Assembly: GCA_965202625.1 (NCBI GenBank)
Contig: CBDBBI010000010.1
Location: forward strand, 2,784,001-2,848,000
Length of the DNA stretch: 64,000 nt
Origin: a bacterium
GTDB taxonomy: Bacteria > UBA8248
Direction: 5' to 3'
Part shown: piece by piece, positions 9,440 to 42,961 of the stretch
Layout: each line of letters begins with the position of its first letter
Position numbering within the stretch: the stretch's first letter is position 1
Position numbers and translations under genes: made by a program
Notes under the pieces: generated by a model
Database searches by the model: none
Told to the model about the DNA's origin: nothing
The model's input: the letters and a program-made list of their open reading frames with translations, nothing else

Positions 9440-10222
9440 ATGGACGTTCGACTGGACGGGAAGAAGGCGCTCATCACGGGCGGAAGCCGAGGAATGGGCC
9501 AGGGCATGGCGCGCAAATTCTCCGAAGCCGGCGCGGAGGTGGCCATCGTCGCGCGGCGGCCCGACGTGCTTGAGGAGACGAGGGAGGAGATCGAATCCGC
9601 CACCGGAGGAAGGGTTTTCGCCTATCGGTGCGATATGCGCGACGCCGGGAAAATCAAGGCTATGTGGGCCTCCGCGCTGGAGGATTTGGGACGAATCGAC
9701 ATTCTGGTGAACAACGCGGGCGCCTCTATCCTGGGTCCGTTTGAGGAGATCAGCGATGAAACGTGGGAGGAGGATTTGGGGCTTAAGCTCTTCGGCGCCA
9801 TCAGAACCTGTCGGCTCGCTTTTCCCGCGATGAAGGAGCGCCGCTGGGGCCGCATCATCAACGTCGTGACCGTGGCGGGCAAAGCGCCTCCGGCCGGCAG
9901 CGCGCCCACGTCGGTCTCGCGTGCCGCAGGGCTGGCGATGACCAAGGTGCTGGCGGGGGAGGGCGCACCCTACAACGTGCTGGTGAACGCGCTGTGCACG
10001 GGCCGCATCGTGACGGATCAGATCGCGCGACGCTACGAGCGGGAAAAACCGAACGTTTCCTTTGATGCATACGTTGCCGAGGCCGCGCGCGATATTCCTC
10101 TCGGCAGGATGGGAACGACCGAGGAATACGCCAACGTGGCGTGTTTTCTGGCGTCTGACGCCGCCTCCTACGTCACGGGGACGGCGGTGAACATCGACGG
10201 GGGATTTTGCGCGGTCGCGTAG
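9440..10222 (+). CDS. SDR family oxidoreductase
   Basis: TGGSRGMG, ILVNNAG, YVTGTAVNIDGG. Confidence 0.85.
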   Translation: MDVRLDGKKALITGGSRGMGQGMARKFSEAGAEVAIVARRPDVLEETREEIESATGGRVFAYRCDMRDAGKIKAMWASALEDLGRIDILVNNAGASILGPFEEISDETWEEDLGLKLFGAIRTCRLAFPAMKERRWGRIINVVTVAGKAPPAGSAPTSVSRAAGLAMTKVLAGEGAPYNVLVNALCTGRIVTDQIARRYEREKPNVSFDAYVAEAARDIPLGRMGTTEEYANVACFLASDAASYVTGTAVNIDGGFCAVA

Positions 10223-10224
10223 AT

Positions 10225-11022
10225 TCAGGAATTTCCGCGCGTCAGTATTTCCCAGGAGATGCTGAGCAGGAACAACGCCGCCGCCGACACGACGATCGAT
10301 GGTCCCGCCGGCGTGTTCCACTGAATAGAGGCCCATAGCCCGACCATCACGGCGATGACGCCCGCCAGAATCGCGAGTATCGCCATCTGTTCGGGCGTTT
10401 TGGAGAATCGCCTCGCCGCCGCCGCCGGAATGATGAGCATGGAGGTGATCAGCAAAATCCCGATCAGTTTCATGGCGATGGCGATGATGAGGGCGATCAG
10501 CAGCATGAAGGTGAGTTGCACGCCGAAAGTCGATATGCCCTCGGCCGCCGCGATCTCTTCGTGCACGGTGATGGCGATCAGGTCGCGCCATATCCACGCG
10601 AGTGCGCACAGGGCCGCCGCGGCACCGACGTAGATCCACAGCAAATCCGCTGGACCGACCGCCAGAATGTCGCCGAAGAGATATCCCATCAGGTCCATCC
10701 GAAGCGTTTCCATGAGGCTGACGGCGATGATGCCGATGGAGAGTGCCGTGTGCGAGAGAACGCCCAGCAGCGTATCCGTCGGGAGTTTCCTCTGGCGTTG
10801 GAGCAGGAGCAGAACCAGCGCGAGGCCGACGCAGGCGGCCAGGGTGCCAAGCCGCAAGTCGATTCCGAAGGCGAACCCGAGCCCCACGCCGAGCAGAGCG
10901 GTGTGGGCCAGGGAATCTCCAAAATAGGCCATCTTGCGCCAGACGATGAAGCAGCCGACGGGGCCTGTGACGATGGCGACCCCGACTCCGCCCAGAAGAG
11001 CGCGAAGTATAAAGTCTTCCAT
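10225..11022 (-). CDS. znuB: Zinc ABC transporter permease
   Basis: GCFIVWRKMAYFGDSLAH, YLFGDIL, LIIPAAAAR. Confidence 0.9.
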   Translation of the reverse strand: MEDFILRALLGGVGVAIVTGPVGCFIVWRKMAYFGDSLAHTALLGVGLGFAFGIDLRLGTLAACVGLALVLLLLQRQRKLPTDTLLGVLSHTALSIGIIAVSLMETLRMDLMGYLFGDILAVGPADLLWIYVGAAAALCALAWIWRDLIAITVHEEIAAAEGISTFGVQLTFMLLIALIIAIAMKLIGILLITSMLIIPAAAARRFSKTPEQMAILAILAGVIAVMVGLWASIQWNTPAGPSIVVSAAALFLLSISWEILTRGNS

Positions 11023-35559: not shown

Positions 35560-36690
35560 ATGTTCCCAAGCCATCGTATCGGAACGCCGGTGCGCCGGAT
35601 CGAAACGCCCGCCCTGCTGATCGATCTCGACGTCATGGAGGAGAACCTCGCTTTGATGGCGGAGCGCCTGGAGGGGGCGAACGTCCGGCTTCGCGCCCAC
35701 GCGAAGACGCACAAGAGTCCCTGGATCGCCAGAAAACAGATTGCGCTCGGCGCAGTGGGCGTGTGCTGTCAGAAGGTGAGCGAGGCCGAGGTGATGATAG
35801 CGGGCGGGGTGGAGGACGTGCTCGTGAGCAGCGAGGTCACTGCGGCCTCCAAACTGGGCCGCCTGGCCGCCCTCGCGCGCCACGCGCGGCTGATGGTGGT
35901 GGTGGATCATCCCGAGGGCGCGCGAATGCTCTCCGAGGCGATGGCGGCGGCGGGCGGAGAGATTGGCGTGCTCATCGACGTGGACGTGGGGCAGGGGCGC
36001 TGCGGAGTGGCGCCGGGCGCTGCGGCGGCAGAGCTGGCCCGGCGCGTGGACGCGATGCGGGGGCTCGACTTGCGTGGAATCCAAGCCTATCAGGGCGCGG
36101 CCCAGCACGTGGACGGGTTCGTCGAGCGGCGCGCGGTCTACGCCGAGGCGATAGGGCTGATGGGGGAAACTATCGCCGCGTTCGACGCCGCTGGACTTCC
36201 GACGGACGTCAGGAGCGGCGGCGGTACGGGTTCCTGGCGATGGGACGCGGAATCAGGCGCGCTGAACGAGCTGCAGGCGGGCAGCTATCTTTTCATGGAC
36301 TCCCACTACGGCAGCATCGGCGGCGAGAGATCGGACGTCTATGACGACTTCAGGCCCAGCCTGTTCGTGTTGACGAGCGTGGTGAGCGCGCCCGCGCCCG
36401 ATCGCGTGGTGATGGACGCCGGCCACAAGGCGCTCACCTCCGACAGCGGGCTCGCCCCCTGCCTCGAACTCGAAGGCGCCGCCCACGCAAGAGCCTCCGA
36501 TGAGCACGGCATCCTCGAACTCTCCCCATCCTCCAGGCGTCCTGAAATTGGCGAGACGCTCCTGTTCCAGCCCAGTCACTGCGACCCGACGATCAACCTC
36601 TACGACGCCTATCACGGAATTCGGGGGGGGATGGAGGAGGGCGTCCTGGAGGCGGTGATCCCCGTGGCGGCGCGCGGTTGCGTCTGGTAG
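35560..36690 (+). CDS. DSD1/D-threonine aldolase family PLP enzyme
   Basis: TPALLID, RAHAKTHKS, GRCGV, SGGGTG, ELQAGSYLFMD, SDEHG, HCDPTINL. Confidence 0.85.
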   Translation: MFPSHRIGTPVRRIETPALLIDLDVMEENLALMAERLEGANVRLRAHAKTHKSPWIARKQIALGAVGVCCQKVSEAEVMIAGGVEDVLVSSEVTAASKLGRLAALARHARLMVVVDHPEGARMLSEAMAAAGGEIGVLIDVDVGQGRCGVAPGAAAAELARRVDAMRGLDLRGIQAYQGAAQHVDGFVERRAVYAEAIGLMGETIAAFDAAGLPTDVRSGGGTGSWRWDAESGALNELQAGSYLFMDSHYGSIGGERSDVYDDFRPSLFVLTSVVSAPAPDRVVMDAGHKALTSDSGLAPCLELEGAAHARASDEHGILELSPSSRRPEIGETLLFQPSHCDPTINLYDAYHGIRGGMEEGVLEAVIPVAARGCVW

Positions 36691-36762
36691 GGCCGCACCG
36701 TCTTTTTCCGGGCGGGACTGCGCACGACGAGGTGAAGAGCGGGCGGCTTTATGCGTCCTGGG

Positions 36763-37284
36763 TTATGGCTTTCCAAACGTGGCGACCCTGTCCACGCGGC
36801 ACTCGAACAGGACGCGCTTCTCTTCGATGACGGGGTCCCGAAGCGCGTAGGGCGGATCCTGCCCCGTGTATTTCGTCCAGATGCGGTCGAGCTGCTCGCC
36901 GGCTCTCTCTCCGCCCGGCTCCCCTTCTCGGACCTCGTTGACGACCGTGCATTTGACGCTCATCCAGTGATAGGGGTTCTCGGGGTTGACGAGGAGGATC
37001 GTGAGGCGCGGGTTCGCTCTTATCCATCCGCATTTTGCCCGGTGGGCGGCGGTGTTCACCAGAATCGTGTCGCCCTCGTAGTCGAACCACATGGGCGTCA
37101 GGTTCACCCGTCCGTCCGGTCCCGTCAGTCCCAGCGTGACCGTGATCGGCATGTCCAGCAGTTGCTTGTAGATGGGGTCCAGCGCAGACAGGCCGCTCGC
37201 CTTTTTTCTTTCCCCCACGGCGAACTGACCCTCTTGCAGACCCTCGGATACGTCCTTGAACCGGGCTACGGTGAATTCCGCCAT
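36763..37284 (-). CDS. Pyridoxamine 5'-phosphate oxidase (PPOX) family protein
   Basis: GPDGRVNLTPMW, VNTA..RAK, NPENPY. Confidence 0.7.
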   Translation of the reverse strand: MAEFTVARFKDVSEGLQEGQFAVGERKKASGLSALDPIYKQLLDMPITVTLGLTGPDGRVNLTPMWFDYEGDTILVNTAAHRAKCGWIRANPRLTILLVNPENPYHWMSVKCTVVNEVREGEPGGERAGEQLDRIWTKYTGQDPPYALRDPVIEEKRVLFECRVDRVATFGKP

Positions 37285-37362
37285 CGCGCGCCTCCTCCCC
37301 ATGAGAAAAAGTGAATTTCGGAAAGGCTAGCAAAGGGGATGCGGCGCGACAAGGGGAGTCGC

Positions 37363-38220
37363 CTATCTTGCCGCGCGCCTCGCGCAGCGAAAGCCCACGA
37401 TCTTCCACCGTATGAGGCCATCAAGCCGAAAGCGCTCGGCACTCCTCAAATACGCGGGGCCCTCGCGCCAGGAGCCCCCTCGAATGGCGTGCATGAACCC
37501 CGAGGGCGGTCCCTGCGGGTCCTTGAGGGGCGCTTTCCGGTAGTAGAACTCGCCCCAGAAATCGTGGGTCCACTCCCAGACGCCGCCCGCCATGGAGCGC
37601 GCCCCATAGGGCGATTCGCCGCCCGGCTTCCCGCCCACGGGCTGCGGGCGGCCGTGGCCGACGAGGGCGCGATCAAAGGAATCGCCCCAGGGGTAGCGTC
37701 TGGCGTCAACGCCCCTCGCCGCTTTTTCCCATTCCGCTTCCGTGGGCAGGCGCTTGCCCGCCCAGGCGCAGTAGGTTTTGGCGTCGAACCAGGAGACGCC
37801 CACGACCGGAAGGCCGGGCCGGTGGAGGTTGCTGTCTCCGGCGTATTTTGATTTCCGGTGTCCCGTGGCTTTCCGAAACCTCTCCCAATGGAAAACAGAT
37901 ACCTCGTCCCGGTCTATCCAGAACGCGGAGATGAACACCTTTCGCACGGGAAGCTCCTGGGGGTTCCCGTCGTATGACCCCTGGGTGAAGAGGCCGCCTG
38001 GCACGAATGCCATCCAGCGGCCGTCTTTTGTCCCAGGAGGCTTTTGGACGAGGGGAACGGGGGACGGGGAGAGGGCGATCTCATGCCTGCGCGCGCGCCG
38101 CTCTCCCTCTGCCGCGGAGGGTCTCGCTTTCATGGGAGTCAGGAAAGAAGCGTTCCCCTGCCCGGAAGCCGTGAGCAGAACGAGGACGAGGGCGAGGAGC
38201 GAAAATCCGAGGCGCGCCAC
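37363..38220 (-). CDS. Exported FGE-sulfatase (SUMF1/PvdO/NirV-fold) protein lacking catalytic cysteines
   Basis: Signal-like N-terminus from GTG 38220, FTQGS, PVVGVSW, RLPTEAEWEKAARG, MAGGVWEW, RGGSW, VGFRC. Confidence 0.85.
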   Translation of the reverse strand: MARLGFSLLALVLVLLTASGQGNASFLTPMKARPSAAEGERRARRHEIALSPSPVPLVQKPPGTKDGRWMAFVPGGLFTQGSYDGNPQELPVRKVFISAFWIDRDEVSVFHWERFRKATGHRKSKYAGDSNLHRPGLPVVGVSWFDAKTYCAWAGKRLPTEAEWEKAARGVDARRYPWGDSFDRALVGHGRPQPVGGKPGGESPYGARSMAGGVWEWTHDFWGEFYYRKAPLKDPQGPPSGFMHAIRGGSWREGPAYLRSAERFRLDGLIRWKIVGFRCARRAAR

Positions 38221-38227
38221 TTCCCGT

Positions 38228-39028
38228 CTATTTTCTCTTTCTGGGCCTTGCGTTGATGAACGCTTCTCGAACGTATTGGACGACCGACCAGATTTCCGCA
38301 TCGCTCAGCACGTGGCCATAAGCCTTCATGAAGTCAAATTTCTTCATCTCGGTGACGTCAATGCGGCCGAGCTTGATGAGCCAGAACAGGAACGCATCGT
38401 CGAAGCGCGCCATCTGTTCCTTGAGGCGATAGTCCATCGGCGGCGGCTGAATGTGGCTGATGAACGGCTTTTCGGGGTCCTGATCCTCCACCGGACGCGC
38501 ACCGTTGCCGGCACCGCGCGCGCCGTGGCATTGCGCGCAGGCGTCCATGAAGATTTCCTTCGTCTCCTCATCCTTCGTCTGGTCGCCGCTCGTGAAGCCG
38601 CGCTCCCATTGGATGAGCTTGCGAATCTGATCGTCCTCAAGCACCTCGCCGAACGAGGGCATGGCCGTGGGAACGCCGTTGTCGATCTTGTGCCCCTTCA
38701 TCCTGTTTTTGAGGACGTTCATCTTGCCGAATTTCACGACGGTGAAGATGTAGTCGTCCGTCATGCGCTTCATGTAGGGGCTGATGAACACCTGGGGTCT
38801 GGGCCTTGAGCTCCGCCAGCTCGGCCCCTTGCCGTCTCCTTTGATGCCGTGGCAGGAGAAGCAGATTTCCTCATAGATTTCCTTGCCCAGCCAGTAGTCT
38901 CCGCCATGCTGCCTTGCCGTATCAGGACGGGGAGGCGCCTTTTTGGCCGCAAGAGAGCCTGCCGGAGCGATGAGGCTCCACGTGAGCGTCAAGACGATCC
39001 AGCAGCCTCTACTTTTCAGAATGTCCAC
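38228..39028 (-). CDS. Diheme cytochrome c
   Basis: Signal peptide; CFSCH with TAMPSF and CAQCH with FMKAYG (likely His/Met hemes). Confidence 0.85.
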   Translation of the reverse strand: MDILKSRGCWIVLTLTWSLIAPAGSLAAKKAPPRPDTARQHGGDYWLGKEIYEEICFSCHGIKGDGKGPSWRSSRPRPQVFISPYMKRMTDDYIFTVVKFGKMNVLKNRMKGHKIDNGVPTAMPSFGEVLEDDQIRKLIQWERGFTSGDQTKDEETKEIFMDACAQCHGARGAGNGARPVEDQDPEKPFISHIQPPPMDYRLKEQMARFDDAFLFWLIKLGRIDVTEMKKFDFMKAYGHVLSDAEIWSVVQYVREAFINARPRKRK

Positions 39029-39099
39029 TTCCCCCTCGGCCTTTCTGATGGCCGCTCGACGCCAGAGGAACGCATTCAGAATTCAGCGCGCCGCACCGC

Positions 39100-40143
39100 T
39101 CATTTCGCGCACGGGTTAGCGGCACAAGGGTTTTTCGCCGCGCAAGGATTCGCGGCACACGGGTTCTTTGCTGCACAGGGGTTCTTTGCCGCGCATGGAT
39201 TGCCTGCGCAAGGGTTGGCGGCACAAGGGTTTTTCGCTGCGCATGGGTTCTTGGCAGCGCAAGGGTTAGCCGCACATGGGTTTTTCGCTGCGCACGGATT
39301 CGCGGCACACGGGTTCTTTGCTGCACATGGGTTTTTCGCTGCACAGGGGTTAGCGGCACACGGGTTCTTTGCTGCACAGGGGTTAGCGGCACACGGGTTC
39401 TTTGTTGCACATGGGTTCTTTGCCGCGCATGGATTACCTGCGCAAGGGTTGGCGGCACAAGGGTTTTTCGCCGCGCAAGGGTTCTTTGCTGCACAGGGGT
39501 TAGCGGCACACGGATTTGCCGCGCATGGATTCGCGGCGCAAGGGTTTTTCGCTGCGCACGGATTCGCAGCGCAGGGGTTCGGGGCGGCACACGGATTTGG
39601 GGCGCATGGATTGGCGCCTCCGCTAGGCCTTCGCACCGTCTTCATGAACGCCTTGCGCTTCGCCTCCCAGTCTATCATGCGCTTGTATCGCTTCGGGGAA
39701 AGCGAAACCACGTAGGCTTCCAGGTCTTTATACTTTTGGGAATAGGGGTCCATGGGCGGGTTGCCGATGAACGCCGTCGCGCAAAGGTCGTTGAACTGCC
39801 CGACGCTGACCACCTGGCTCGCTGGACTCAGGCGCGGGAAGTGATCCGCCGCTCCGATGAGGGTGGGAATGGGGACCGGATTCCGAAAACCCATCACGTC
39901 CACCGCCGTGCCGCCGATCGTGCGGCCCCGAGGGTGGCAGCCCACGCAGCCGACGCTCCTGAATAATTTTTTGCCGCGCGCGACGGAATCCTTCACGCTG
40001 TGGTCATATTGCTGCGTATAGAAAAAGGGCGGAGGCGTGATGGTTGCTTTTTTCTCGCCCGTCTCCTGCGCATGGGAGGCTGCGGGAGTCGCCAGCCCGA
40101 AAGCTGCGGCGAAGATGATGGCCCACTTTGCTGTTTTCATCAC
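39100..40143 (-). CDS. Monoheme cytochrome c (SoxA/TsdA-like domain) with about 31 C-terminal NPC repeats
   Basis: Signal peptide, CVGCH, FPR...FNDLC...LEAYVVSLS, then NPCAA(K) tail of about 170 aa. Confidence 0.8.
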   Translation of the reverse strand: MMKTAKWAIIFAAAFGLATPAASHAQETGEKKATITPPPFFYTQQYDHSVKDSVARGKKLFRSVGCVGCHPRGRTIGGTAVDVMGFRNPVPIPTLIGAADHFPRLSPASQVVSVGQFNDLCATAFIGNPPMDPYSQKYKDLEAYVVSLSPKRYKRMIDWEAKRKAFMKTVRRPSGGANPCAPNPCAAPNPCAANPCAAKNPCAANPCAANPCAANPCAAKNPCAAKNPCAANPCAGNPCAAKNPCATKNPCAANPCAAKNPCAANPCAAKNPCAAKNPCAANPCAAKNPCAANPCAAKNPCAAKNPCAANPCAGNPCAAKNPCAAKNPCAANPCAAKNPCAANPCAK

Positions 40144-40223
40144 GTTCTCCTTGCTGAGAGTCTCGACCCCTGGGAATATGAAAAATCAGGCTCCACGACG
40201 CCCGCGTGTCGTTTTACGCGTCT

Positions 40224-41308
40224 CTATCCACCCTGGCAGGGATTCTTTGCCGCACAGGGATTTCCGGCGCACGGATTCTTGGCCGCACAAGGGTTAGCCG
40301 CACATGGGTTCTTGGCCGCGCAAGGGTTAGCCGCACATGGGTTCTTGGCCGCGCAAGGGTTAGCCGCACATGGGTTCTTGGCCGCGCAAGGGTTCGCCGC
40401 ACATGGGTTTTTCGCTGCGCAGGGATTCTTGGCCGCGCACGGGTTAGCGGCACACGGATTCTTGGCCGCACAAGGGTTAGCCGCGCACGGGTTCTTGGCC
40501 GCGCAAGGATTCTTGCCAGCGCACGGGTTTCCCGCACACGGATTTGCCGCGCAAGGATTGCTCCCCGCACACGGGTTTCCAGCGCATGGATTCTTCGCTG
40601 TCCTCGCACAGGGATTTCCAGCACATGGGTTGGCGCCACAGGGATTTCCGCCGCCGCCTGCGAGGGCATAGACGAAATTTGCCCTGTAGGAGCCGCCCCT
40701 GGCCTGGGTGGAGACGTTCACCCGGGTTCCGGCCTTGATGGAGCTGACGCTGATCGGCTTGGGTCCAAGATGGGCCAGCGTTGTTTTCACGACGTGGACG
40801 CTGAGGTTCTCGCCGGCGGACGTGCGCACACCAAGGTAGCCTTTTTGGTAGCCGGTAACTTCGCCGACGAGCATGACGCCCTCGCTCCTCGCGCGAACGC
40901 CGCCGCCCCCACAGGGATTCGCCGCGCACGGGTTCGCTGCGCACGGATTTTTGGCCGCGCATGGATTTCCGCACACGGATTCTTGGCCGTACATGGGTTC
41001 GCCGCGCACGGATTCTTGGCGGCGCATGGGTTAGCGGCACATGGGTTCTTGGCAGCGCAAGGGTTCGCCGCACAAGGATTCTTGGCAGCGCAAGGGTTAG
41101 CCGCACACGGATTCTTGGCCGTACATGGGTTCGCCGCACAAGGATTCTTGGCAGCGCATGGGTTAGCCGCACATGGATTCTTTGCCGCGCATGGGTTAGC
41201 CGCGCATGGATTCTTTGCCGCGCATGGGTTCGCCGCCTCAGCCGGCGTCGCCCAGACGAAAGCGGCCAAAAGCGCGCTGAACAGGATGAACCTTGAGTTT
41301 CTCCACAT
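40224..41308 (-). CDS. Secreted NPC-repeat protein (about 20 repeats, ~80-aa beta-rich domain, about 25 repeats); 1-nt frameshift near 40968
   Basis: Joins ORF 40787..41458 (signal peptide MWRNSRF...AEA from 41308) to ORF 40224..41027. TGTGCGGAAATCCA lacks one base relative to neighbouring units. Confidence 0.8.
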
Positions 41309-41537
41309 GGTTCTTCCTCCTTTGGGGGATGGATGCGATGCGAAACGTTTATGGTTCGTCAAAATTTGGGTTTCCTCGGTCGCAGTTGTTCGCGACGGTA
41401 TGCGTCGGGCACTCTCCGCGCAAAAGTTTGTGCGTGTCTCGTCCATATAATCCACCATATGACAGAAAACAAGGGCGAGGCTCTGGTTATTCCAGCCGGT
41501 GCTGGAATCCGGCGGAATTCTATCAGAATCGGGCGGG

Positions 41538-41960
41538 TTAGGGGAGCAGGCGCATTCCCAAAAAAGAGACGAAAAGGGAGAGGAAAATCGCCAGAAACCC
41601 GCAATAGGAGTGAATTTGTCGCCAGTCGTCGTTTTTCAGGTTTTTTCTGAGTTTTCGGCCCAGGTAGGCCGTCGCCCACAACAAGCATAGAGCCAGAGTG
41701 GCGAAATAGGAATGGGCCGTATCGTAATTGGGAGATTCCAGGGCGAAGCGCATTCCGCCCAGGCCGAGGGCGTAGCCCGCCGAGAAAAGAGCGGTGAACC
41801 ACCGCCCGAGCCTCATATGCAGACGGGCGATTCGCACCCTCTCGGGGCCCGTCCCCCTTCTTCCGGCGCGTCTGACCCGCAGACCGCTCGCCAGGGTGAT
41901 GAGGCCCAACGAGAGGGCGGCGATTTGAAAAGCCGGATGAAGATACGCCCCGAAATTCAT
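41538..41960 (-). CDS. Four-helix membrane protein with four His (DUF4079 / cytochrome b561-like)
   Basis: YLHP, RLHMRLG, TAHSY, QIHSY, each at or in a hydrophobic helix. Confidence 0.65.
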   Translation of the reverse strand: MNFGAYLHPAFQIAALSLGLITLASGLRVRRAGRRGTGPERVRIARLHMRLGRWFTALFSAGYALGLGGMRFALESPNYDTAHSYFATLALCLLWATAYLGRKLRKNLKNDDWRQIHSYCGFLAIFLSLFVSFLGMRLLP

Positions 41961-42173
41961 GCGCCGCCGTTCCAGAGAGTCGTATGTGTGAATGTGAGAC
42001 GCGCTTTTATCATCTTGGCCTTCGCCCTCCGCCTTGTCGAGAGGGAGGCGCAAGGCTTAGAATGGCGCGAACGCGCCTATGGCCTTCGGACAGGGGGTGA
42101 AGGGCGATGCCGCCCCCATGCGAGGGCTTCGTGGCTTGGAAAAGGTGGATCATTCTTCTTAAAGGAGGAAATC

Positions 42174-42850
42174 ATGGCCGTCATCGTATATGTTCTGACC
42201 AACCCGGCAATGTCCGGCCTCGTCAAGATCGGCAAGACTTCAAAGGACGATGTTCAGGCGAGGATGAGTCAACTGCATACGACAGGCGTTCCTCTTCCTT
42301 TCGAGTGCAGGTTCGCTATTGAGGTTGAGGACGAACAAGGGCCCGGGCTTGAACGGGCACTCCGGGATCGACGCCTTCGGTCCAGAGCAGACTGAGTCCT
42401 TCGAGAGAGTTCTTCGCAATAAAGACTTCCCAGGTGGTGGAGCTTCTCAAAATCTGGCCGGGCGCCAAAGACGTTACGCCAGAGGTCGAACGTGATTTGG
42501 ACAAGAATTTATCTTCCGAAGTCAGGGAGGCTACGAGGAAATTCAGGGAGGACAGGGAGGACAGGGAGGCTACGAGGAAATTCAGGAAAGCTCGCAGACC
42601 AAATTTGAATTTTAAGATGATGGGAATTCCAGAGGGATCAAAACTGGTGTCCACGCATGAGGATCGCGAGGAAGCGACCGTGATTGGGGAGCAGAAAAGT
42701 GTCGTTTCGGGGCGAGGAAATGTATCTGACGGCCGCAACCCAGATGGCCTGGAATCTGGATTACGGGGTTACCCCTTCTTCTGTACTGGACTTTCGAAGG
42801 CAGAAATCTCTCGGAAATTTACTCGGAGACGTATCCGCAGAGTATCGGCG
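42174..42850 (+). pseudogene. GIY-YIG / T5orf172-domain protein, multiply frameshifted
   Basis: IVYVLTNPAMSGLVKIGKT...RMSQLHTTGVPLPF; continuation RRPNLNFKMMGIP and FRGEEMYLTAAT lies in other frames. End approximate. Confidence 0.7.
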
Positions 42851-42961
42851 AGCGGCGGCGACGAGGAGGAGGACTAGGCCGAGAAGCCACCGCGCATATC
42901 TCTTGCGGAAGGCGAAAGGGAATTATACAGGCAAGGGCGACCATATACCCGTTCAGGAGGG

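Follow-up and report, generated by a model that had tools for sequence, protein, structure and literature searches.

Asn-Pro-Cys repeat arms and a SoxA/TsdA-type haem domain in a bacterial gene cluster: a candidate periplasmic haem-thiol redox module

The SoxAX-SoxYZ and TsdA/TsdB systems (Protein Data Bank entries 1H31, 2C1D and 4WQ7) and the MrpX/YedY(MsrP)/YedZ(MsrQ) system of Azospira suillum are the closest described counterparts of the gene cluster that we report here. According to PMC4423706, TsdA works via a cysteine S-thiosulfonate on its haem-ligand cysteine, and PMC6879331 gives the reaction as bidirectional. In the MrpX/YedY precedent, as set out in PMC4436054, a sacrificial, sulfur-rich periplasmic protein is regenerated through a haem-b membrane protein. 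We analyzed a 64,000-nucleotide stretch of DNA (hereafter the window; GenBank assembly GCA_965202625.1, contig CBDBBI010000010.1, positions 2,784,001 to 2,848,000 of the forward strand) from an uncultured marine bacterium of the GTDB lineage Bacteria; UBA8248. Six genes, here named A to F, lie together in the window, and two of them, B and C, encode exported proteins with long arms built from the repeated tripeptide Asn-Pro-Cys (NPC). The arm of C is attached to a monohaem cytochrome c domain that is related to SoxA and TsdA. We found the arrangement to be widespread and without a description in the literature that we covered. We tentatively read it as a periplasmic haem-thiol redox module, with soft-metal handling and sulfur carriage as live rivals to this reading.

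With SoxAX-SoxYZ and TsdA/TsdB, the locus shares a c-type haem domain whose ligand position is a conserved Cys, an additional relay cytochrome of the His/Met type, a flexible-arm Cys as the likely reaction partner and the periplasmic location of all components. It differs from SoxAX and TsdA in that C is monohaem and below the Pfam threshold, and in that enzyme and arm are fused, with 31 cysteines on the arm in place of a single one. The cluster moreover adds a four-His membrane protein and a protein with the fold of the formylglycine-generating enzyme (FGE), the haem-side Cys appears to be selenocysteine (Sec) in some lineages, and there are relatives with Met-rich arms. Unlike in Sox, no SoxY, SoxB or YeeE was found in the window's genome. 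In the MsrP-MsrQ pair, MsrQ is a haem-b membrane protein that supplies electrons to MsrP. The likeness to the MrpX/YedY/YedZ system, known from hypochlorite scavenging, is one of logic and concerns the combination of a secreted protein rich in a single oxidisable sulfur amino acid with a periplasmic repair enzyme (PMC4436054); several NPC and Met-arm loci of other taxa also resemble it in their sigma/anti-sigma control. The cluster departs from that system in using Cys rather than Met, a haem c protein rather than a molybdoenzyme and a DUF4079 protein rather than a ferric-reductase-type MsrQ, and the window cluster has no sigma factor. We found neither an Oxidored_molyb nor a Ferric_reduct domain in the cluster.

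A preliminary description of this DNA, made from the sequence alone, had reported six co-oriented genes, and the list of open reading frames (ORFs) places all six on the minus strand:

36763-42053, minus strand: six ORFs, A to F, arranged head to tail with gaps of 61-230 bases or small overlaps
41538-41960, minus strand: gene A, DUF4079 membrane protein of 140 amino acids (aa), open upstream to a TTG at 42053
40224-41308, minus strand: gene B, with signal peptide, N-terminal NPC array, core of the oligonucleotide/oligosaccharide-binding (OB) fold and C-terminal NPC array; 45 NPC
40647-40910, minus strand: OB-fold core of B, about 85 aa, with Gly runs on both sides
39100-40143, minus strand: gene C, 347-aa monohaem cytochrome c with signal peptide, SoxA/TsdA-like domain and a 31-NPC tail ending in NPCAK
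39934-39948, minus strand: CVGCH haem-binding motif of C, residues 66-70, invariant in the family alignment
39781-39783, minus strand: codon (TGC) of Cys121 of C, an invariant Cys aligned with the haem-ligand Cys of SoxA
39109-39612, minus strand: NPC array of C, 31 units at a spacing of 5 or 6 residues, with a 33-base (11-aa) unit
38228-39028, minus strand: gene D, 266-aa exported dihaem cytochrome c with the motifs CFSCH (38849-38863) and CAQCH (38525-38539)
37363-38301, minus strand: gene E, 312-aa exported FGE-sulfatase-fold protein
36763-37302, minus strand: gene F, PPOX-class protein (PNPOx, 37.5 bits)

The haem domain of C is central to the comparison with Sox and Tsd. The protein has a single CxxCH motif, CVGCH, which is invariant in 12 of 12 aligned sequences, and Cys121 is invariant in the family alignment as well. 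In NPC proteins of other phyla, the monohaem domain exceeded the cut-off of 27 for the Pfam family SoxA-TsdA_cyt-c (PF21342) in all three cases tested (36.9, 33.0 and 55.5 bits). A profile of 21 such NPC-flanked SoxA/TsdA-type domains matched SoxA (1H31_A) at E 2e-8, with the invariant Cys falling on C114, which we take to be the ligand of haem 1 in that structure. The C family in turn aligned to the NPC-flanked SoxA/TsdA-type domains with hhalign at 95% probability and E 3e-8, Cys over Cys. On these sequence comparisons, the haem domain of C is a divergent SoxA/TsdA-type domain. Direct searches of solved structures with the sequence of C gave only weak matches of the peroxidase-type haem motif (E 0.003-1), and the AlphaFold2 model of the core, with a predicted local distance difference test (pLDDT) of 58.9, was too poor for a fold search. 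Having a single haem, C also differs from TsdA, where one chain unites two haem domains (His/Cys plus His/Lys-Met); the dihaem cytochrome of the cluster, D, is a protein of its own and resembles CcoP. The preliminary description had guessed at a His/Cys-ligated haem. Homology speaks for this part of its proposal, through the alignment of Cys121 to C114 of SoxA and the codon exchange described below, while the ligation itself is an extrapolation from the alignment.

In six of the 33 genomes of the phylum that have C (G002, G007, G009, G011, G012 and G037), the codon of Cys121 is replaced by an in-frame TGA. The same is seen in one metagenome-assembled genome of another label (L124), and the reading frame is otherwise open and conserved. 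We located these TGA codons at the following positions:

L054:10046, TGA at the Cys121 codon
L055:10064, the same
L038:1368, minus strand, the same
L124:1141, minus strand, the same
L178, about 3382, the same
L179, about 3447, the same
L180, about 3402, minus strand, the same
L181, about 3285, minus strand, the same

The TGA is followed by a hairpin with the loop CGUGA, in which one pair is compensatory through two synonymous changes. The region also folds in the Cys-type genes of C, however, and the hairpin by itself is weak proof of Sec. The genes selA and selB scored above their cut-offs in G002, G007 and the window's genome and were not found in G011, which is 67% complete. An exchange of Sec and Cys at one site is a classical mark of a redox-active catalytic residue, and we consider the TGA-type C a candidate for a natural selenocysteine at a haem-ligand position. 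In G007 (L054, about 10220-10300), a further in-frame TGA closely precedes the short NPC tail of C (..KKLSR*GGGKGNPC..) and may encode a second Sec, permit read-through or be a genuine stop by which the tail is lost.

The NPC arms are the other defining part of the cluster. We counted 76 NPC tripeptides in three ORFs (C and the two into which B is divided in the assembly), against seven in all six frames of the remaining 64-kb window. These three were the only ORFs with at least three NPC in a scan of the whole 3.09-Mb genome, and a degenerate DNA pattern for the repeat had 28 matches in the genome, all at this locus, while the reversed control pattern had none. As the preliminary description had noticed, the codons vary synonymously between repeats, with AAC and AAT, all four Pro codons and both TGC and TGT in use. 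The 33-base units of C show a mutual identity of 68-80%; because the units are no more alike than this and all synonymous codons are used, we attribute the invariance of N-P-C to selection on the protein. Part of the C-terminal array of B consists of units that are 91-95% identical, which suggests a recent expansion. The only complex prediction that folded a piece of an array gave it a pLDDT below 50, and the arms are therefore probably disordered.

Outside the repeats, C is well conserved in the phylum. We found an orthologue in 33 of the 51 genomes at E ≤ 7e-18 and, choosing for long contigs, studied 20-kb stretches around C from 20 of the 33. The A-[B]-C-D cluster recurs in 18 of these 20 relatives' loci, so that the association seen in the window is not confined to it, and among the individual genes, A adjoins C in 18 loci and D does so in 18; the B core is found near C in 11, E in 9 and F in 14. 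Gene E lies within 10 kb of C in 9 of the 20, directly after D in 4 of these. Three further genomes have C-D-E in a row, one of them together with A and B, and E, B, C and D are all retained in two genomes from another class, where the repeat reads ANPCNPCAAKK. In the 9 of 20 loci without B, C opens with a B-like signal peptide and an N-terminal NPC arm; this start indicates that B and C are fused there. A series of such fusions is seen within one genus (loci L046-L053, L058, L059 and L073).

The repeats themselves are kept in the orthologues together with their cysteines. A search with the non-repeat part of C returned 34 database proteins, 33 of which hold 2-17 NPC units and 20 also an N-terminal NPC arm. 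Over all database relatives of C, the number of NPC ranges from 1 to 17, against 31 in the window. The window version is the most expanded that we encountered, with 31 and 45 Cys, and the one with the most complete electron path. Searches of Pfam, NCBIfam and solved structures matched no already characterised complex, and nothing in NCBIfam exceeded the curated cut-off for seven ORFs of the window or for 12 NPC proteins of other taxa. In agreement with the preliminary description, which knew of no system with this architecture, we found no account of NPC repeats or of the cluster in the literature covered, subscription journals being outside the coverage.

For the secreted product of gene B, the preliminary description had given about 45 NPC repeats. 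A continuous reading that starts with the ATG at 41308 does yield 45, but in the assembly the gene is split into two overlapping ORFs, 40787-41458 (16 NPC) and 40224-41027 (29 NPC), the frames of which differ by one base near 40970. The B orthologues of four close relatives are single intact ORFs of 318-394 codons (stop to stop) with 33-44 NPC. Two contigs join the frames: a G is inserted behind 40970 in a Logan contig of run X1 (depth 2.2), and 65 bases are skipped there in an RNA-library contig of run X5. Given the intact orthologues and these contigs, we treated B as one gene, 40224-41308, and we think it most likely that the break reflects either an error of assembly or strain variation in a repeat that is hard to assemble.

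The AlphaFold2 model of the B core is a predicted six-stranded barrel (pLDDT 84.9), and its best Foldseek matches are OB folds (RMI2, RPA, Ten1 and CusF) at E 3e-3 to 2e-2. With CusF among the matches, the template modeling (TM) score is 0.63-0.73, normalised to the target. Across 12 aligned cores we found no conserved Cys, His, Met or Trp; although the fold is similar, the core has no counterpart of the His/Met/Met/Trp metal site of CusF. Without conserved Cys, His or Met, the core has the appearance of a docking or scaffold domain.

A, described as a four-His membrane protein, matches Pfam DUF4079 with 47 bits (cut-off 31.4). A His stands at the head of each of its four hydrophobic helices (H8, H48, H83 and H117, numbered from the ATG at 41960), and all four are invariant in 11 of 11 orthologues. 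The protein matches the b561 and Ni_hydr_CYTB profiles below their cut-offs. With the four-helix dihaem proteins cytochrome b561, CybB and DUF4079 it shares the four helices with one conserved His each, the binding of haem and quinone being putative, and we presume A to be a transmembrane electron carrier with two b haems. No description of a function of DUF4079 was found in the same literature, where the name occurs in a paper on a cyanobacterial genome. D, described as a diheme cytochrome c, has the motifs CFSCH and CAQCH, scores 78 bits with Cytochrome_CBB3 and 68.8 bits with Cytochrom_C, and belongs to the CcoP/c4 kind; it is presumed to be an electron relay. The export of B, C, D and E had likewise been claimed, and we recognised the corresponding signal peptides, judging the sequences by eye rather than with a predictor.

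E, described as an exported FGE-fold protein, matches FGE-sulfatase (PF03781) with 170.4 bits and human FGE structures at E 1e-30. It shares the full fold and the export with FGE (SUMF1) and PvdO, the latter being a periplasmic protein without catalytic cysteines, and it differs from FGE in the absent catalytic Cys and in having no CxPxR substrate. In the alignment to human FGE, Glu and Leu take the places of C336 and C341, and the catalytic pair is missing in the aligned phylum relatives of E too. As both catalytic Cys are absent, we ruled out that E is a working formylglycine-generating enzyme. The NPC arms read NPCAA(K)NPC and contain no CxPxR motif, and E scores far below the family cut-offs of PvdO, EgtB and SenA. 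A complex prediction of E residues 90-312 with a 51-residue NPC piece, run without controls, gave no answer (score 0.00). The FGE-like partners of proteobacterial NPC genes (L060, L067 and L069) differ from E in having GCGVC, a CxxC, at the place of the catalytic Cys pair of FGE, and the arms may be substrates of these partners.

The window's genome has a second cluster at a distance of about 470 kb (G000:C10:2312622-2316804), with a TlpA-like redoxin, an FGE-like gene, a 279-aa membrane-like ORF and a multihaem cytochrome, and without an NPC gene. Its FGE-like gene is 46% identical to the Thalassospira NPC-partner type and its multihaem cytochrome 43% identical to the family found beside NPC genes.

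F, a PPOX gene that the preliminary description had suspected of not belonging, lies 0.1-7 kb from C in 14 of the 20 loci and is missing from the six most distant. We rejected it as a member of the cluster, its position being plain synteny common to close relatives only. The flanking genes (a two-component system, DUF6282, a D-Ser-dehydratase-like gene, a cyclase and an ATP-grasp/CoA-ligase) were excluded on the same grounds. A conserved ORF at 42155-42877 on the plus strand diverges from A and is found upstream of A in three relatives as well (L042, L048 and L049). A scan of 36500-42400 for promoters and terminators gave counts no higher than in shuffles, and therefore nothing can be inferred about the ends of the operon. 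In two studies, RNA-library contigs overlap portions of B, C, D and F; in view of possible DNA carry-over, they hint only weakly at expression, and stretches without such contigs carry no weight as evidence. Contig depth spikes in all four runs at 37605-37785 and 40320-40680, to as much as 172 and 407. The spikes likely reflect the FGE-domain and NPC-repeat sequences of other organisms mapping at 90% likeness, not copy number.

To follow the NPC arms beyond the phylum, we scanned a one-genome-per-species collection with a DNA pattern for NPCxxNPCxxxNPC and fetched 80 loci for the study of neighbours. The pattern occurs in at least 119 stretches, against about 0.3 expected by chance according to our own estimate. 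A few of the matches (L081/L082, L107 and L116) appear marginal. In the 80 loci, the arms were found in these settings:

SoxA-like domains: 26 distinct
P460-like domains: 14, both of those tested being below the Pfam cut-off
domains of the type of C in the window: 4
YceI: in Poribacteria
DM13: in cyanobacteria
TPR domains, OB-fold cores like that of B, and small proteins of signal peptide plus repeat

A protein search with the tail of C returned 777 clusters of 91-291 aa at E ≤ 1e-5; among the best 120 matches, 44 had PF21342, 11 YHS, 4 P460 and 3 DM13. The cyanobacterial proteins annotated as 'YHS domain-containing (seleno)proteins' (P0043, P0085, P0108 and eight more) have long N-terminal NPC arms and are another Sec-linked partner of the repeat. 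Among the carriers are cultivable marine heterotrophs such as Thalassospira, Marinobacter, Zobellella and Denitromonas.

The neighbours of these NPC genes were identified with tblastn in the 80 loci and with Pfam scans in 38. By tblastn, DUF6969 was present in 32 loci, FGE-like genes in 15, one multihaem cytochrome family in 14, a small cytochrome c in 11, DUF3179 in 7, a TlpA-like redoxin in 6, an extracytoplasmic function (ECF) sigma factor in 5 and copper genes in 1. YeeE-type Sulf_transp genes stand beside NPC genes in 5 of the 38 Pfam-scanned loci (L076, L096, L102, L104 and L110), and Crp regulators are among the neighbours in these scans. We further saw rhodanese genes (L088, L089, L102 and L114), a TauE sulfite exporter (L127), one DsbD/CcdA-type gene (L103), an MsrP/MsrQ-like pair beside one NPC gene (L118) and ZAS anti-sigma factors at L066, an NPC locus, and L212. 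In Zobellella (L103), the NPC cytochrome directly follows copB, copA and a response regulator, and a cupredoxin (L088) and a MerR regulator (L083) adjoin NPC genes elsewhere. DUF6969 is the commonest neighbour of NPC genes in Proteobacteria (32 of 80 loci, for example L060:1680-2444), and we saw no signal peptide in it. It has no solved relative, an Atlas search returned its own family only, and the literature, within the coverage given above, held no description. Its profile PF22308 had no match in the window's genome, yet the same search matched no control genome either.

Distant relatives of the haem domain extend the comparison from cysteine to methionine. Against 1.84 billion representatives, the profile of the C domain matched 250 proteins at E ≤ 1e-3, 31 at E ≤ 1e-10 and 4 at E ≤ 1e-30. 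We read 36 distant representatives, and 33 of them keep the Cys, none has NPC and 17 carry arms of 10-35% Met (for example P0165, P0168, P0172, P0176, P0187 and P0190; loci L182-L217). In 18 Met-armed metagenome loci, a multi-haem cytochrome c comparable to D directly follows in 10, an ECF sigma factor lies upstream in 3, in one case followed by a ZAS anti-sigma gene, and DUF3179 is present in 3. The neighbours sometimes include TonB-ExbBD and a protein with a CarboxypepD_reg domain. No copper-resistance or Msr families were found among the 99 ORFs scanned beside the Met-armed relatives. As the same haem domain bears either Cys-rich or Met-rich arms, oxidisable, thiophilic sulfur residues are the common theme, and the alternation fits residues that are oxidised or that bind soft metals, not the carriage of sulfane sulfur.

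Our preferred reading, for which we would claim a little less than an even chance, is that the haem drives a redox cycle of the exposed thiols and that this cycle buffers the periplasm against thiol-reactive stress. By analogy with TsdA and SoxAX, the Cys or Sec beside the haem would form S-S (or Se-S) bonds to cysteines of the NPC arms and open them again, with the arm offered in cis by the tail of C or in trans by the arms of B. The haem of C would accept or donate the two electrons, D would pass them on, and A, with two b haems across the membrane, would couple them to the quinone pool. The arms would form a high-capacity, regenerable thiol buffer that intercepts oxidants, and possibly soft metals, in the periplasm, and the module would be the Cys counterpart of the Met-rich MrpX/MsrP-MsrQ scavenging. 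E may handle the arms as a partner whose catalytic activity is either absent or of another kind. We offer the sequence of carriers, their connection to quinone, the electron direction and the substrate as inference only. Partners that bear on the thiol state are found in other taxa, in the form of the TlpA-like redoxin (6 of 80 NPC loci), the ECF sigma factor (5 of 80), the DsbD/CcdA-type gene (L103), the ZAS anti-sigma factors (L066 and L212) and the MsrP/MsrQ-like genes (L118).

Several points weigh against the thiol redox cycle. C matches no Pfam or NCBIfam family at E ≤ 0.01, and with a model as poor as that of C (pLDDT 58.9), the putative Cys-Fe ligation is read from the alignment. Electrons drawn from quinol would reduce disulfides only against the thermodynamic gradient, save where the oxidised species has a high potential, as with a sulfenate or thiosulfonate type. 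According to PMC9562282, His/Cys haems lie several hundred mV below the thiosulfate/tetrathionate couple. The window's cluster has no thioredoxin-type reductant and no stress sigma factor. The OB fold like that of CusF, the YHS fusions and the one cop locus fit metal handling equally, and the YeeE and rhodanese neighbours of other taxa fit sulfur carriage.

If metals are the substrate, the arms would capture Cu(I)-type soft metals in the manner of metallothionein or the Csp store, the haem chain would oxidise or reduce the metal as an analogue of CueO, and B would be a CusF-like shuttle. Cys and Met are classical Cu(I)/Ag(I) ligands, and both occur as arms on one haem-domain family. The likeness to periplasmic copper proteins (CusF, CueO/CopA, Csp1 and bufferins) extends to the OB fold of B (CusF among the matches, TM 0.63-0.73 normalised to target), the arms rich in Cys or Met, the cop locus of Zobellella (L103) and the YHS fusions, the YHS domain of 11 of the best 120 tail matches being possibly copper-binding according to Pfam. 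One source names the B-like protein P0098 CusF, a cupredoxin (L088) and a MerR regulator (L083) are neighbours, TlpA-type reductants serve copper-site cysteines, and the FGE fold binds Cu(I) in true FGEs. There is no sequence relation to the copper proteins, however; the Met/His/Trp ligands of CusF are unconserved in the B core, E is without the Cu-binding Cys pair, and the cluster has no multicopper oxidase or MNIO (DUF692). The cysteines of the window are single and evenly spaced, not in CxC or CxxC clusters, and a spacing of 5-6 residues is no known cluster-forming motif. Copper genes accompany only 1 of 80 NPC loci by tblastn and are absent from the 99 ORFs beside Met-armed relatives, and a Sec/Cys switch beside a haem is more typical of redox catalysis than of metal storage. 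We consider soft-metal handling unlikely, if well worth keeping in view. The carriage of sulfur strikes us as quite unlikely. It would make the NPC cysteines a multi-copy version of the GGCGG arm of SoxY, onto which the SoxA-like haem couples thiosulfate, sulfide or polysulfide, with electrons leaving via D to the respiratory chain and the loaded arms storing or passing on sulfane sulfur. The haem domain is of the SoxA/TsdA kind, known for such chemistry (PMC4423706), and YeeE-type genes (5 of 38 loci), rhodaneses (L088, L089, L102 and L114) and TauE (L127) stand beside NPC genes. In the 99.7%-complete genome of the window, however, we found no match to SoxY or SoxB (TIGR04488, TIGR04486) or to Sulf_transp, while the controls matched, and the cluster holds no SoxB-type hydrolase for the release of a product. 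The arms also occur on P460-like, YHS, DM13, YceI, TPR and OB domains without a link to sulfur oxidation. The Met-rich arms of 17 of the 36 distant relatives are unable to carry sulfane sulfur, which weakens the storage of sulfane sulfur that the preliminary description had listed among the possible uses.

It is very unlikely, in our judgment, that the arms are passive linkers, that is, fast-evolving low-complexity tethers on a set of ordinary respiratory carriers (C, D and A). The variation in repeat number (1-17 in database relatives, 31 here), the recent expansion of part of the array of B with its 91-95% identical units and the low predicted order of the folded arm piece (pLDDT below 50) are as expected of tethers. 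Against tethers stands the constancy of N-P-C across phyla, where codons vary and the linker may be AA, AAK, AK, GG or none; the at least 119 pattern stretches against about 0.3 expected, the 777 tail-matching clusters and the recurrent partners in the 80 loci (DUF6969 in 32, FGE-like genes in 15, the multihaem family in 14) also speak against them. Still harder to credit is a modified polymer, in which the FGE-fold partner converts the NPC cysteines, through aldehydes or cross-links, into a structural or adhesive matrix of the periplasm or the surface. FGE-like genes do stand beside NPC genes in 15 of 80 loci of unrelated taxa and 9 of 20 in the phylum, and the proteobacterial versions have CxxC at the active-site pair. 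E and its phylum relatives, however, are without both Cys, NPC differs from the CxPxR motif of FGE, 65 of the 80 NPC loci have no FGE-like gene in the fetched DNA, and the attachment of haem domains is left unexplained.

New in the window is a version of this arrangement with DUF4079, an OB-fold protein and a dihaem cytochrome c, and with the largest arms seen here; new around it are the B-C fusion series, the Sec variants and the Met-arm relatives. Going beyond the redox cycle itself, NPC arms together with a SoxA-like haem might constitute a new class of device, a regenerable multi-thiol sponge or redox capacitor that holds tens of electrons or adducts per protein. It would be charged by a membrane-wired, thiolate-ligated c-type haem, selenolate-ligated in several lineages, and would run parallel to but be mechanistically unlike DsbAB, MsrPQ/MrpX and Sox; we regard this as possible but doubtful. 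The Sec variants would, to our knowledge, be the first candidates in nature for a selenolate on a c-type haem or beside it. With the full presumed electron path of the window (a b-type membrane protein, a dihaem c and a His/Cys haem) and with cultured carriers of simpler versions, the question is directly testable. If the thiol redox cycle is real, bacteria of many phyla would hold an undescribed way to place many reactive thiols beyond the cytoplasm and to keep them redox-coupled to the respiratory chain, with bearing on the protection of an oxidising periplasm, on the handling of soft metals or reactive sulfur and on the breadth of Cys-ligated haem chemistry.

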